A stretch of 64,000 bases of DNA from Eledone cirrhosa (taxonomy: Eukaryota): assembly GCA_964016885.1 (NCBI GenBank), contig OZ024743.1, positions 76,508,001 to 76,572,000 of the forward strand, in the 5' to 3' direction. A program made the position numbers and the translations under genes. The notes below the pieces were generated by a model that worked only from the letters and a program-made list of their open reading frames with translations, was not told the origin of the DNA and made no database searches. Positions within the stretch are counted from its first letter, which is position 1. The number at the start of each line of letters is the position of its first letter. Shown in pieces: positions 550 through 52,110 of this stretch.

Positions 550-890
550 TAGGTTTGTTGGTTCACCACTGGATAGAACTGGTCATTCCGTATGGTCAAC
601 CTCGATGTAATATTATGGAGAGTACTCAACGTAATGCAACTCACCCGTCTTCGTTTGTGTGGTTGGTGGTGCGAGTACGGAGTTAATTATTAGAAAATAA
701 CAGGAGACTGGACTGGTGTAAATCCTTGAAAGGTTTATTATACTATGATCATCTCAATGACCGGGTTCAGTATGATTCCGGTGACATCATCAGGTATTCA
801 AAATATAACAAAGGAATATAACAGATAAAATCTATGAGGCCGAAAATCAGAGACAAGAAGACGACCGACTATTTAGCAGTTTCTACCTTA
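550..890 (-). mobile_element. Short (TA)n-flanked repeat carrying a degenerate hammerhead motif (Penelope-like terminal-repeat relic)
   Basis: Flanked by (TA)n. Positions 555-735 align by eye with 24265-24460. Contains the motif at 740-797. Confidence 0.45.
740..797 (-). ncRNA. Degenerate minimal hammerhead ribozyme (GAAA changed to GAGA)
   Basis: Minus strand reads ATAC CTGATGA tgtcACCGG-loop-CCGGTcatt GAGA TGATCA TA GTAT. Stem I is ATAC/GTAT and stem III is the palindrome TGATCA. One core base is mutated. Confidence 0.55.
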
Positions 891-1124
891 GTAGATATAT
901 ATATATACATATATATATACTAATAATATTCTTCATTGTACTGTGTCGTTTGCTTTGTTGTTTCTGTTTGCCTTTTGCTTACATACATACATATATATGT
1001 ATGTATGGTTGCATGTATATATATATATATATATATATATACATGTGTGTGTGTACCTATGTATGCGTAGATACATATTTAAATGTGTGTGTATAGTGTA
1101 TATAGAGCACTATGTTTTTCTTTT

Positions 1125-1514
1125 TTCAAGCTGTTATATTTCAAGCTATGTTATATTTCAAGCTCTGTTATATTTCAAGCTATGTTATATTTCAAGCTAT
1201 GTTATATTTCAAGCTATGTTATATTTCAAGCTATGTTATATTTCAAGCTATGTTATATTTCAAGCTATGTTATATTTCAAGCTCTGTTATATTTCAAGCT
1301 ATGTTATATTTCAAGCTATGTTATATTTCAAGCTATGTTATATTTCAAGCTATGTTATATTTCAAGCTATGTTATATTTCAAGCTATGTTATATTTCAAG
1401 CTATGTTATATTTCAAGCTATGTTATATTTCAAGCTATGTTATATTTCAAGCTATATTATATTTCAAGCTATGTTATATTTCAAGCTATGTTATATTTCA
1501 AGCTATGTTATATT
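1125..1514. repeat. 17-bp minisatellite (TCAAGCTATGTTATATT), about 23 copies
   Basis: Direct tandem repetition. Explains the ORFs at 943, 1083 and 1112. Confidence 0.95.
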
Positions 1515-1594
1515 AAAGACAACACTGTATTCATATTTCATATATTTTTCATTAACATTTTTTTCATATTACTATTACGTTTGGTTTGGAATAA

Positions 1595-1775
1595 TAATTG
1601 TTTCTACATTTGGCACAAGGACAGCAATTATCCAGTACTTTACTGGTACTTTATTTTATCGACCCCGTAAGGATGAAAAGCAAAGTTAACCTCGGCGGGA
1701 TCTGAACTCAGATCGTAAAGGGACGTAACTATGCTGGGAAGCATGGCGTCCGACTCTCTACCTATACTGCCAATC
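1595..1775 (-). mobile_element. tRNA-headed SINE, tail type A
   Basis: Reverse complement contains the B-box-like GAGTTCAGATCCCG followed by CCGAGGTTAACTTTGCTTTTCATCC...AAAGTACCAGT. Many near-identical copies occur in the window. Confidence 0.8.
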
Positions 1776-2125
1776 CCTGTCGTTTCGAGTCTTTCACATA
1801 AAGTTGTAATGGTGTGTTGTTAGCAAAGGACCATGGAAGTATATATAAGTTCACTACCATACCAGTATGTATAACACACACTGACTTACATACTTAACAC
1901 AATATACCTTTAAAAACACATACATTTAAACATACACATACACTCACACATAATATCGACACTAATACACACAAACACACCTCTTTTGCATTCCAAATCG
2001 TTACCAAGACAACCTAACGGTTTGTCTTGTTCACACTCTTTATTTTCGTTTTTTTTTGTTAGTTTATTTGGATTACCTTTTATTTTCTCTATCTATCCTT
2101 TCTGATCCTGTCTCTATTTTTGAAC

Positions 2126-2160
2126 TCCAAAAGAAGGGCTAAAGCCCGACACGTCAAACT
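2126..2160 (+). ncRNA. Decayed minimal hammerhead-like motif
   Basis: Reads ccAAAAGA-A-GGGC taaa GCCC-GACA-CG-TC. Stem II is intact and the spacing fits CTGAAGA/GAAA-CG-TC, but the core is mutated. Followed by a tail shared with sequence near 20110 and 49680. Confidence 0.3.
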
Positions 2161-2329
2161 TTCTTTCCCCCTTTTCCATATAAAGCGTGAAACTAATAAG
2201 AGATTTTGTACCCCTATTTGTTGTTTCTTTGAACTATATATATATATATATATATATATATATAGAGTGAGAGAGAGAGAGAGAGAGAGAGAGAGAGAGA
2301 GAGAGAGAGAGAGAGAGAGAGAGAGAGAG

Positions 2330-2657
2330 AGGGTGAAGTTGGAAATAGCACGGAAAATATATTTTAGGGTCTGTTTTGTTTTTTTTATCCTTTCTTTGAT
2401 TCATTATTGAAAAGATGAGAGGGACTATTCTTTTTAAAAAAAGTTTTATAATGTATATAAGGTATATTAAGTATATAAAGTATTACCGGTTTCGATGTAT
2501 TATTAAAATTGATCTTATCAAATGTTGAGTATTGAAATAAAAAAAAATAAAAAGAATTAATAGGAGTTAAAAACTAAAAATTAAAGATTTAAAATTAAAA
2601 TCAAATGTTGGAGTAAGTTTTCTTCCCATCTTTCTTGCTCAAAATTTGGCTGGAGAA
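2330..2657 (-). mobile_element. Microsatellite-flanked ~330-bp element with a U3-A8 hammerhead-like motif (copy 1)
   Basis: Reverse complement of 49733-50087. Lies between (GA)n and (TA)n. Motif at 2478-2527. Confidence 0.7.
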
Positions 2658-49187: not shown

Positions 49188-49370
49188 ATAATTGTTTCTA
49201 CTTTTGACACAAGGCCAGCAATTATCCCAGTGCATTACTGGTACTTTATTTTATCGACCCCGTAAGGATGAAAGGCAAAGTTAACCTCGGCGGGATTTGA
49301 ACTCAGAATGGCAAGGACCATAACTATGCGTCAAAGCATGGCGTCCGACCCTCTACCGATACTGCCAATC
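49188..49370 (-). mobile_element. SINE type A
   Basis: Reverse complement of 23955-24132 at high identity. Confidence 0.8.
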
Positions 49371-49732
49371 GAAATAATGTCAAACAATAATGTCAGACAC
49401 GCGAATGACAATGTTAGCTTTGACATCTGTCCACCTCGTCGTCATTGTTGACTCATCAGTGCGTTGACTCATTACTGTAGTTGATTAGGGTCAGGTCAAA
49501 TGTGATCGAAGGCGGCTAATTGGTAGAATCCTTGGGGAGTCGGATTAAAAATACCTCGCTTACTGTAGTCGATACTCTCTCTCTCTCTCTCTCTCTCTCT
49601 CTCTCTCTCCCTCTATCTATATATATATATATAATGAAAAATTGAACGGGAACAAAACAGAGAGGCAGTACAACAAATGTTTATTAATTTCACGCTCTTG
49701 AGAGTGGGGTGGTGATATATATATATATATAC

Positions 49733-50087
49733 ATTCTCCAGCCAAATTTTGAGCAAGAAAACTGGAAGAAAACTTACTCCAACATTTGATTTTAATTTTA
49801 AATCTTTAATTTTTAGTTTTTAACTCCTATTAATTATTTTTTATTTTTTATTTCAATACTCAACGTTTGATAAGATTAATTTTAATAATACATCGAAACC
49901 AGTAATATTTTATTTACTTTATATACATTATATACTTTATATACTTTATATACATTATAAAACCTTTTTTTTTTTTTAAGAATTGTCCCTCTCATTTTTT
50001 CAATAATGTCACTTTGACGAATCAAAGAAAGGATTAAAAAAAAAACAGACCCTTAAATATATTTTCCGTACTATTTCCAACTTCACC
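49733..50087 (+). mobile_element. Microsatellite-flanked element with a U3-A8 hammerhead-like motif (copy 2)
   Basis: Inverted copy of 2330-2657. Motif TTGATAA GAT...ATC GAAA CCAG TA at 49867-49904. Confidence 0.7.
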
Positions 50088-50886
50088 TTCTCTCTCTCTC
50101 TCTCTCTCTCTCTCTCTCTATATATATATATATATATATATATATATATATATATATATATATATATATATATATATATATATTTAATACATTAACAGAG
50201 AAAGCTTTAAGGAATACTCCGACCGACTTCCGTCTCACTCAACAAACATTAGCATATACCTTAGTATAATCCCAATTATACGTTTGGAGTGCTAACTATA
50301 CGTATTTTGCGGATAGCCAGTTGTATTATTTTATATGAGACATAATTAAATACATCCCTCTTTCCAAACGATCGTTTCATTATAAGTTTTCTACAAGTTG
50401 GGAAAATAATGTCCAGGTTATGTAGAAGCCTACACATAGTCTATAGGAATATATGCAGGTGGGTACTTATAAATCATCAGTGGATGCCCAACAATATCGG
50501 TATAATAAAAAAAAAACCTACTGATATTAACATTCAGCGATGGTACCCGTCAGTGTTAGAGTGACCGCCAAATTTGAAATTCCAGCAGTCTCACAAAGAG
50601 AAATCTCAGACCGTCACCAAGCGGGAAGGGGAGGTCATCGTAAAACATAAAAGAATAAAATAATATGCACGCAGGTCAATTAATTCTGTCAAGAATTTTA
50701 ACCATGCGTAAAGAACTCAATTGGATATAAAAAAAATATATATATTCTTGTATTATTTATACATGCATATATATATATATATATCTCTGTGTACAATTTT
50801 GTCACAACCAAATCAACCTTCTCAAATGCAAGTAGATGTTGTTACGGTATGTCGAATCTATTTATCTATAAAACTGTTTATATTGT

Positions 50887-50950
50887 ATTTTGTCTGAGGA
50901 AGGCATGGCATATTGTTAATATGTTATCTCTGAAATATATATGATGAAAT
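50887..50950 (+). ncRNA. Family A hammerhead, probably inactive (AUG at the cleavage triplet)
   Basis: Reads ATTTTGT CTGAGGA aggcATGGCATAT-tgtta-ATATGTTATctct GAAA TATATA TG ATGAAAT. G at position 17 violates the NUH rule. Confidence 0.65.
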
Positions 50951-51862
50951 AGATATGGTTTTATAAATATAGTTTCCATTTATTTAATATTGTAAATATA
51001 CTCCAAATATTTGTCGAGTGCTTTTATATCAGTTATAAATATTTACTAGTTGTAACACAACAATTTAAATATAACTTTCCATATATATATATATATATAT
51101 ATATATATATATATGCATATATATATATATGCATATATATATATATATATATATATATATATGCATATATATATATATATATATATATATATATATATAT
51201 ATATATATATATATATGCATATATATATATATATATATGCATATATATATATATATATATATATATATATATATATATATATATATATATATATGCATAT
51301 ATATATATATATATGCATATATATATATATATATATATATATATATATATATATATATATATATATATATATATATAAATGAAAGGTATAGAAATTGTTT
51401 TAACGAGAAGCTAACAGTATTTCATTATATATATATATATATATATATATATATATATATATATATATATATATATATATATATATATATATATATATAT
51501 ATATATATATATATATATATATATCTCGACAGTCGATTGACTTTCGTCATATTGGACCGAGGATACAATGGTCTTTCCAATTGCTAATACTATCTATCGG
51601 TCGCAAATCCAGGTAGAAAGACAACGCATTACCCGGTCCGGGAATCGAACTCACAATCTCACGTGCCTTCACACACACACACACACATATGTATATAAAC
51701 ATATATACATATATTTATATATATATATATATATATATATATATATATATATATATAGAGAGAGAGAGAGAGAGAGAGAGAGAGAGAGAGAGGGGGGGGT
51801 AGAACACTGGAAGGTAATATCCGTAGTGGTAGAGCACTCAGTCCATGGGACGAGTTTGGTAG

Positions 51863-51998
51863 AAGTGGTAACACAACAGTTAGTTCACCATACCGAGAAC
51901 AATTGTTTCACCTTATGCGGATCTTATCCGAGCTGAAGATCCGCATAAGGTGAAACAATTGTTCTCGGTATGGTGAACTAACTGTTGTGTTACTACTT
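51863..51998. repeat. Near-perfect 63-bp inverted repeat with a 10-nt loop
   Basis: 51863-51925 pairs with 51936-51998. Confidence 0.92.
51928..51968 (+). ncRNA. Minimal hammerhead ribozyme, family B (41 nt)
   Basis: Reads CCGAG CTGAAGA tCCgcataaGGt GAAA CAATTG TT CTCGG. Stem I is CCGAG/CTCGG and stem III is palindromic. Triplet GUU; predicted cut after 51963. Stem II is weak. Confidence 0.75.
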
Positions 51999-52047
51999 AT
52001 ATATATATATATATATATATATATATATATATATATATATATATTGT

Positions 52048-52110
52048 ATTTTATCTGATGAAAGTGCACCAAAATTGCCTAGGTTGCCCTTGAAATATAT
52101 ATAATAAAAT
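52048..52110 (+). ncRNA. Minimal hammerhead ribozyme, family A, canonical CUGAUGA core
   Basis: Reads ATTTTAT CTGATGA aagtgcacc-loop-ggttgccctt GAAA TATATA TA ATAAAAT. Predicted cut after 52103. The element spans about 52043-52240 between (TA)n tracts. Confidence 0.8.

Follow-up and report, generated by a model that had tools for sequence, protein, structure and literature searches.

Minimal hammerhead ribozymes carried by truncated Penelope-like elements (PLEs) are known from many invertebrates (PMC4209133), and for Octopus bimaculoides a PLE of the Hydra clade, Hydra-1_Obim, has been listed with a hammerhead and a (TA)n preference (Craig et al. 2021, PMC8557442). The role of PLE hammerheads is unsettled. 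A Schistosoma motif is weakly active as a dimer and does not cleave as a monomer (PMC4209133), cleavage in an Anolis PLE is assisted by the protein and not required for insertion in vitro (PMC11167929), and Naiads are without hammerheads (PMC8557442). Published counts include 235 hammerheads for the giant squid and 126,247 canonical motifs for the axolotl. Active Penelope-like families are included in a repeat annotation of O. vulgaris from 2026, whose main text does not use the word ‘ribozyme’, and we found no genome-wide hammerhead count for an octopus in the literature, subscription papers and Repbase/Dfam aside. Here we analyse a 64,000-nt stretch of the Eledone cirrhosa genome (assembly GCA_964016885.1, contig OZ024743.1, positions 76,508,001 to 76,572,000 of the forward strand; hereafter the window) which carries ten hammerhead motifs around the last coding exon of Wnt7. 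We consider it highly probable that these hammerhead sequences, of the minimal type I, form the 3′ ends of 5′-truncated PLE copies inserted in (TA)n, with Hydra-clade parents for two of the five families concerned (A and C), Neptune-type parents for two others (D and E) and a likely non-autonomous source for family B, most copies being likely inert relics.

All ten motifs claimed by a preliminary description of the window exist, each site having been read directly in the sequence, and the assignment made there to minimal type I hammerheads of PLE termini associated with (TA)n is supported. Five motifs (7747+, 38196−, 38465+, 51933+ and 52055+) have intact cores, CUGANGA and GAAA, with a palindromic stem III, an NUH site and a stem I; they are the five that had been singled out as intact. 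Our final descriptor for minimal type I hammerheads tolerates a single unpaired nucleotide at the base of stem II, a single mismatch within that stem and the U3-A8 core. It returns exactly these five motifs from the window, against a mean of 0.07 (maximum 1) in 30 block-wise dinucleotide shuffles, while a stricter first version gave two matches against 0.05. Since the descriptor was widened after the motifs had been seen, the independent test is a genome sample of 40 evenly placed 10-kb stretches (400 kb), in which it found 39 matches against a mean of 0.08 in 12 shuffles and none in the reversed sequence.

The ten motifs belong to five repeat families and nine insertions, in line with the several families that had been suspected, and their flanks are therefore not unrelated as had been thought: family A accounts for five of the motifs, among them the two arms of a single foldback, and family E for two. 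Family A is represented by a short-end 3′ stub at 7729..7842 (+) with an intact hammerhead at 7739-7799 (stem III TACGTA, AUA site), by the foldback that contains both 38196− and 38465+, and by two long-end stubs. The inverted arm of the foldback (38098..38265, −) has the short end and an intact core, with the hammerhead at 38139-38204; its forward arm (38399..38652, +) has the long end followed by (TA)n and a hammerhead at 38457-38522 with TATGTA as stem III. One long-end stub (50845..51080, +; hammerhead 50886-50951, motif 50894+) has a G at position 17, which is outside the NUH rule, and the other (52044..52241, +), lying between two (TA)n runs, has an intact hammerhead at 52047-52111 with TATATA. 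The family B stub at 548..892 (−) has its hammerhead at 740-797 (motif 793−, stem III TGATCA), with GAGA in place of GAAA; GAAA is the family form and the window copy a mutant. Family C, a Hydra-type PLE, is present as a foldback at 51798..51997 (+), composed of an inverted long-end arm (51798-51924) and a forward short-end arm with an intact hammerhead at 51928-51968 (CAATTG, GUU site, 2-bp stem II). Family D, an old Neptune-type PLE, has a stub at 1866..2234 (+) with a hammerhead-like motif at 2126-2160 (~2128+) combining a first core CAAAAGA, mutated further in this copy, with a second core GACA and a CG stem III. The two stubs of the Neptune-type family E both have the U3-A8 core, TTGATAA: 2332..2657 (−; hammerhead 2478-2527, motif 2521−) with CCGG as stem III and a 2-bp stem I, and 49734..50087 (+; hammerhead 49861-49910, motif 49867+) with the palindrome mutated to CCAG. 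The stem III palindromes are as the preliminary description gave them. The five motifs it called variant or decayed are genuine family members with altered cores, but decay does not describe TTGATAA in family E or GACA in family D, both of which are family-wide. Three fragments were also seen: the 3′ half of another hammerhead family at 1-64 (+), with stem III CATTAGTG and a GUC site, cut by the window start; an old tail-only fragment without hammerhead at 24253-24433 (−), 71% like family B; and a family D long-end tail at 49614-49709 (−), again without hammerhead.

The ends of these copies bear the signature of PLEs. Measured past the cleavage site they are bimodal, at ~+45/+142 in A, ~+55/+196 in B and ~+30/+97 in C, and less clean in D and E. 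Foldbacks were found for A (20), B (4), C (18) and E (2) and none for D, and they pair one short with one long end in 20/20, 4/4 and 16/18 cases for A, B and C, respectively. In these three families, 5′ breakpoints and foldback junctions vary by copy whereas 3′ ends are fixed. A (TA)3 follows within 8 nt in 156 of 210 ends (A, 68/82; B, 33/36; C, 25/48; D, 21/29; E, 9/15), compared with a background of 12%. Partial tandems of the pseudo-LTR (long terminal repeat) kind were found in family B, as a 212-nt repeat, and in a Neptune element (L122), and none was seen for A, C, D and E in the loci examined. A tail at one end only is a described mark of PLEs, tied by an in vitro study to two start sites of the reverse transcriptase (RT) (PMC11167929); the two fixed 3′ ends seen here carry this model over to Hydra and Neptune elements, whose tails are longer.

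Walking 5′ from family A stubs leads to locus L206/L008, where an RT frame with DKT and YRDD motifs is followed by a GIY-YIG endonuclease (EN) and, 1.3 kb further, by the hammerhead; L219 is a further parent locus, and L267, from a second A subfamily, is laid out alike, its forward and inverted arms being 99.8% identical. The N-terminal RWK region is absent from the truncated copies available. The family C hammerhead follows a Hydra-type EN after 171-186 nt in 6 of 35 pattern-matched copies, a set that includes repeat retrievals and near-identical loci, and in L115 a C subfamily lies 175 nt after a related EN that is 35% identical to that of family A. L206, L267 and L115 share the CxCX5C linker, CxxC before the conserved E and CxH after N (CxY in L115), and they are without a CCHH core, all of which are marks of the Hydra clade (PMC8557442). 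For family E, the foldback L264 contains Neptune-type RT sequence without the EN region and is 79% identical to the element of L135, which ends in a related U3-A8/CCGG hammerhead; such hammerheads follow three Neptune-type families of open reading frames (ORFs) in this genome. Family D lies downstream of Neptune-type RT/EN remnants in 2 of 15 loci (L277 and L282), 76-81% alike. Fixed distances also separate further Neptune-type ORFs from the hammerheads of other families downstream of them. Judged by their motifs, the parents of A and C are thus likely of the Hydra clade and those of D and E likely Neptune-type. The linkage to PLE ORFs that the preliminary description had suggested looking for therefore exists for A and C, and for D and E with Neptune-type remnants or RT. 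Its ‘retroelement system’ is indeed hammerhead-bearing and (TA)n-associated, but the motifs appear to be 3′ stubs of ordinary ORF-bearing PLEs. Similarly, protein-based annotation does miss the stubs, the window giving no tblastn match to PLE proteins, but the parents are easily found, with matches in 12 of 40 random genome stretches.

A first look at the genome gave 10,596 GIY-YIG candidates; the first 30 such loci included none linked to the families of the window. Pfam did not recognise the ORF pieces of the A and C parents, and a search for homologues of the A endonuclease returned unnamed proteins only. An assignment of the A and C parents to Nematis was dropped, the CxCX5C and CxH motifs fitting the Hydra description better. 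Four apparent links were rejected as nested insertions, because the hammerhead of another family or unrelated sequence intervenes or because sister copies lack the EN: those between family A and an L115-type EN, between family E and an EN of that type (L196/197/202), between B and a Neptune EN (L121), and between D and a Penelope-type EN (L258).

Most aligned copies retain the majority core intact (A 111/122, B 30/37, C 33/41, E 19/24), and stem III palindromes are present in all five families, stem I being ~2 bp in D and E and stem II 2 bp in C. TTGATAA is the form of family E, with 23 of 24 copies agreeing at each of the two positions; the U3-A8 covariant is known from Schistosoma PLEs (PMC4209133). 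Family D departs from the type I core, its second core being GACA and not GAAA: a 33-nt pattern has 15 exact genomic matches with GACA against one with GAAA, and GACA occurs in 31 of 32 aligned copies, a set biased by GACA-carrying queries. First-look DNA searches of the genome gave 2,541 candidates for A, 3,124 for B, 2,309 for C, 2,086 for D and 1,016 for E, which are not copy numbers, only the best 40 having been scored per search.

The long form of family B is a 2,077-nt unit without any match to PLE proteins. In L111 three B cleavage sites are spaced 2,077 nt apart, delimiting two units that are 99.6% identical, with an inverted arm capping the 5′ side of the tandem. Two independent copies, 93% identical over 1,670 nt, have longest stop-free frames of 126 and 118 residues, and the B body was reached in 5 of the 25 loci retrieved. 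Along the unit, folding z-scores fall below −3 only at the hammerhead and at one AT-rich hairpin, and Rfam made no hammerhead match on it. Two sequencing runs of unrecorded kind have contigs that span the whole unit with many variant positions, and are uninformative on expression and ends. By its anatomy, B is likely a non-autonomous PLE or a retrozyme. A GC-richer segment of 155 nt occurs twice in the unit (L111:7749-7901 and 8048-8197, 73% alike); it has no Rfam match, is not clearly structured and is possibly an internal promoter. Decayed ORF pieces adjoin B copies at L114:2600-4140 (−) and L207:5937-6818 (−), which resemble, and may be, remnants of Naiad PLEs.

Among the 39 matches in the 400-kb sample, 11 form one 310-nt tandem array; the other 28 are dispersed, i.e. 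one per 14 kb, and two of these are singletons that may be due to chance. Extrapolated to the assembly of 3.0 Gb, this corresponds to 2.1 × 10^5 intact dispersed motifs (bootstrap 1.3-2.9 × 10^5). Homology, which includes decayed copies, identifies 54 sites in the sample, or one per 7.4 kb, so that the earlier figure of one motif per 6 kb had the right order and was slightly high. A tight pattern for family A is matched exactly at 46,613 sites of the genome (control 0); in the sample it matched 9 times where 6.2 were expected, and rescaling the estimate by this ratio gives 1.5 × 10^5 motifs. Insertions are fewer than matches because many matches are the two arms of one foldback. In 1.25 Mb of genome, 175 distinct descriptor matches fall into 11 clusters of at least two members and 10 singletons. 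The tandem array (L222:231-3396, −; 11 hammerheads, CGCG stem III) has the layout of a classical non-LTR retrozyme; its motifs score 23-38.6 bits in Rfam against a threshold of 52 for HH9, and L122 has a related motif downstream of a Neptune-type ORF.

Ten stem II types of family A, 7-22 edits apart, have a mean folding z of −2.2 compared with 0.04 for downstream controls, and seven of them form three base pairs and then, past a C-C mismatch, another five to eight. Across 22 chosen A variants, two-sided changes occur in seven of the nine stem II pairs and in one of the eight pairs of stem I; 96.5% of stem II cells are paired, against 91.0% after shuffling and 38-52% after sliding, and the structure beats 500 of 500 shuffles on pairing and covariation score. 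Variants common to at least three copies affect 1 of 55 core columns and 68 of 549 flank columns (p=0.013), whereas rare variants, pooled over families, are as frequent in the core (39/2373, 1.64%) as in the flanks (349/20371, 1.71%; p=0.87). In the comparison of core with flanks that had been suggested, shared variants avoid the core and rare ones show no excess conservation of it. Since stem II covaries between subfamilies while rare variants strike the core like the flanks, selection appears to act on source elements only; constraint in the source elements followed by neutral decay of the copies is likely, as is the conclusion that most genomic copies are inert relics. The predicted stem III is stable in the dimer (−2.2 to −8.3 kcal/mol; only −1.7 for D), whereas the monomer hairpin of A-C is at +2.4 to +4.7. 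A C-C mismatch near the fourth stem II position recurs in A, B and a cluster with a GCAG stem I despite their unrelated stems, the TGCGCA family having C-U at the equivalent position; it may reflect a tertiary or protein contact.

From these data a likely cycle can be outlined. A tandem or read-through transcript of the source element would carry two hammerheads, whose palindromic stem III segments could pair into a helix of 6-8 bp. Paired in this way, and perhaps aided by the protein of the element as published work on PLEs suggests, the hammerheads would trim the RNA to single units. With (TA)n nicked by the GIY-YIG domain, reverse transcription would have a choice of two start sites, both downstream of the ribozyme, and the observed short and long 3′ ends would be accounted for by this choice. 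Early termination and fold-back would then leave stubs of 100-400 nt that retain the ribozyme because it lies near the 3′ end. Once inserted, the copies mutate without visible constraint on the core.

Several points weigh against the interpretation as ribozyme-bearing PLE ends, or limit it. Cleavage is predicted from the sequence. The hammerhead stem III appears in none of the predicted folds of the window motifs, and only three of the ten fold better than shuffles or nearly so (z of −2.3 for 7747+ and 793−, and −1.3 to +0.95 for the rest). The 22 family A variants were hand-picked from 62 selected by the descriptor, so that the stem II pairing is partly built in, and 47 of 500 shuffles reach the same number of pairs with two-sided changes. 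The clade names rest on motifs rather than on a tree with reference elements, the D link consists of two loci, the E link of one foldback and a 67-69% match, and no ORF-bearing parent was found for family B. In family A taken alone, rare variants are less frequent in the core (0.5%) than in the flanks (1.2%, p=0.04), which may be search bias or some constraint. Even so, there is very little room for the notion that the motifs never were ribozymes but arose by chance within AT-rich repeats and were then spread by transposition. Rfam makes no hammerhead call on them (none among the 150 of 401 matches listed for the window, which were microsatellite and hairpin matches only, and none in a scan of 51800-52240), several stems are weak, and shuffled controls leave the copying of a single chance match unaccounted for. 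Against this, the descriptor picks out eleven multi-copy clusters that are unrelated to one another and have palindromes and stems of their own, and the A subfamilies show covariation of stem II. In addition, the position after the ORF and features such as the GUU site, or a U behind A9 combined with a pyrimidine ahead of G12, agree with the published table of Hydra PLEs (PMC8557442).

It is unlikely, though deserving more weight, that the stubs are independent non-autonomous elements, either foldbacks resembling miniature inverted-repeat transposable elements (MITEs) or retrozymes, which are themselves copied and are not truncation products. Most copies are short and many are foldbacks, the B unit runs from cleavage site to cleavage site in a 99.6% identical tandem without a PLE-protein match, and L222 is a tandem array of 11 hammerheads. 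In A, B and C the 3′ ends are fixed whereas the junctions of foldbacks and the breakpoints on the 5′ side are copy-specific, which speaks for truncation, as do the long A and C copies that continue unbroken into RT-EN ORFs, and the transcript of a foldback would pair the ribozyme with its own antisense arm. The reading as an independent element fits the source unit of B but not the stubs. We regard it as distinctly improbable that copies have been co-opted and act in host transcripts as trans dimers that cut long introns or 3′ regions, e.g. of the Wnt7 pre-mRNA. About one intact motif per 14 kb and a self-complementary stem III shared within each family would permit pairing in trans, motif 7747+ is the sole intact window motif in sense orientation within the Wnt7 intron, and the family A deficit of rare variants could be a trace of such use. 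Pooled rare variants, however, reveal no core constraint, the core or the site is altered in five of the ten window motifs, minimal PLE hammerheads in the literature show no activity as monomers and little as dimers (PMC4209133), and one published PLE hammerhead requires the PLE protein (PMC11167929). In a foldback, moreover, the two ribozymes are on opposite strands, so that the transcript would contain one ribozyme and its own antisense arm and form no cis dimer; an effect on Wnt7 is therefore unlikely.

The position of the motifs around Wnt7 was described correctly. The window carries just its last coding exon, at 32020-32502 (+), corresponding to residues 191-351 of the closest homologue, Argonauta hians Wnt-7b (90% identity; ~70% with other molluscs). 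Since the preceding exon ends 158.7 kb upstream, bases 1-32019 are part of the 158.7-kb last intron and four motifs (793−, 2128+, 2521− and 7747+) are intronic, the remaining six lying past the stop codon. The window also contains large minisatellite arrays at 9824-18503, 44830-47311 and 60101-64000, with units of 40, 15 and 36 nt, and a general repeat search of it was dominated by satellites. Fragments of other non-LTR retrotransposon ORFs lie at 43824-44816 (−), with a weak zf-RVT match, 8418-8939 (+) and 26797-27117 (−). A further abundant foldback family flanked by (TA)n occurs at 7243+, 19830+ and ~36650-36800, with GAAA and a hairpin and no recognisable first core; its 16-nt motif matched 7 times in the 400-kb sample and was found in 37 distinct contexts. 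It may represent a PLE end whose ribozyme has been lost or is deviant. A long inverted repeat at 19584-19716, with a microRNA-hairpin match below the gathering score, is likely another foldback element.

The basic finding is what would be expected of a PLE-rich invertebrate. New here are the scale, the spread of one family despite a GACA core, and unit B, which is long and non-coding. Schistosoma SMalpha repeats may be as dense in hammerheads, and we claim no record of density. A more far-reaching reading, which we offer tentatively and consider doubtful, is that the ~2 × 10^5 intact minimal ribozymes exceed all published counts found, that B is a 2.08-kb non-coding retrozyme spreading as circular RNA on Hydra-type PLE machinery, that D reached thousands of copies with a GACA core, which would make cleavage dispensable in vivo, and that the stem II C-C mismatch kept across unrelated families marks an undescribed contact with stem I or the PLE protein. 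Since many families of this genome, with cores that are intact, covariant or broken, can be tied to RT-EN parents, the role of the ribozyme is open to a comparative test. For annotation it matters that the foldbacks of the window score as microRNA hairpins in the Rfam scan and may be filed as MITEs.

The preliminary description could not tell whether such a system had been described. The kind of element has been published; the A-E motifs, however, differ from that of Hydra-1_Obim, those of A and C in sequence. With the EN-bearing Hydra-clade PLEs (PMC8557442) the parents share the C-terminal GIY-YIG with the CxCX5C linker, CxxC before E and CxH after N, the DKT in the RT of L206, (TA)n targets, a sense hammerhead near the 3′ end and an inverted 5′-truncated copy. 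They differ in the 3′ untranslated region of 1.3-1.5 kb in A, in tails of ~65-140 nt compared with the 30-40 bp described, and in diversity, one Octopus family being listed there whereas A alone comprises at least 10 stem II types and has 46,613 exact matches. The Neptune-type elements have the CX2-5CxxC linker, CxxC before YIG, and DKG and YLDD in long ORFs as in the Neptune clade, but the E copy with RT (L264) lacks the EN region and the D parents are decayed remnants only. The B unit and the L222 array resemble the animal non-LTR retrozymes (PMC7229834; bioRxiv 10.64898/2026.07.22.740005) and non-autonomous Chlamys PLEs such as MRC1 (PMC8557442) in being non-coding hammerhead-to-hammerhead tandem units that are likely moved by PLE proteins. 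With 2,077 nt, the B unit is longer than the retrozymes of 150-450 bp and 51-972 bp (the latter from a search limited to a period of 1,000 bp), and it has a PLE-type tail, an inverted arm and a minimal instead of a canonical hammerhead. A further parallel is with the minimal hammerheads of metazoan PLEs (Cervera and de la Pena 2014, PMC4209133), which are likewise type I with a palindromic stem III, belong to many families per genome, mostly occur as single motifs of truncated PLEs or as opposite-strand pairs 100-700 bp apart, and include the U3-A8 variant and, in one case, a 2-bp helix I. A family-wide GACA core is not described in the available part of that work, and its ~2,000-9,000 motifs per genome, obtained with another descriptor, compare with an estimated 1.3-2.9 × 10^5 in E. 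cirrhosa.

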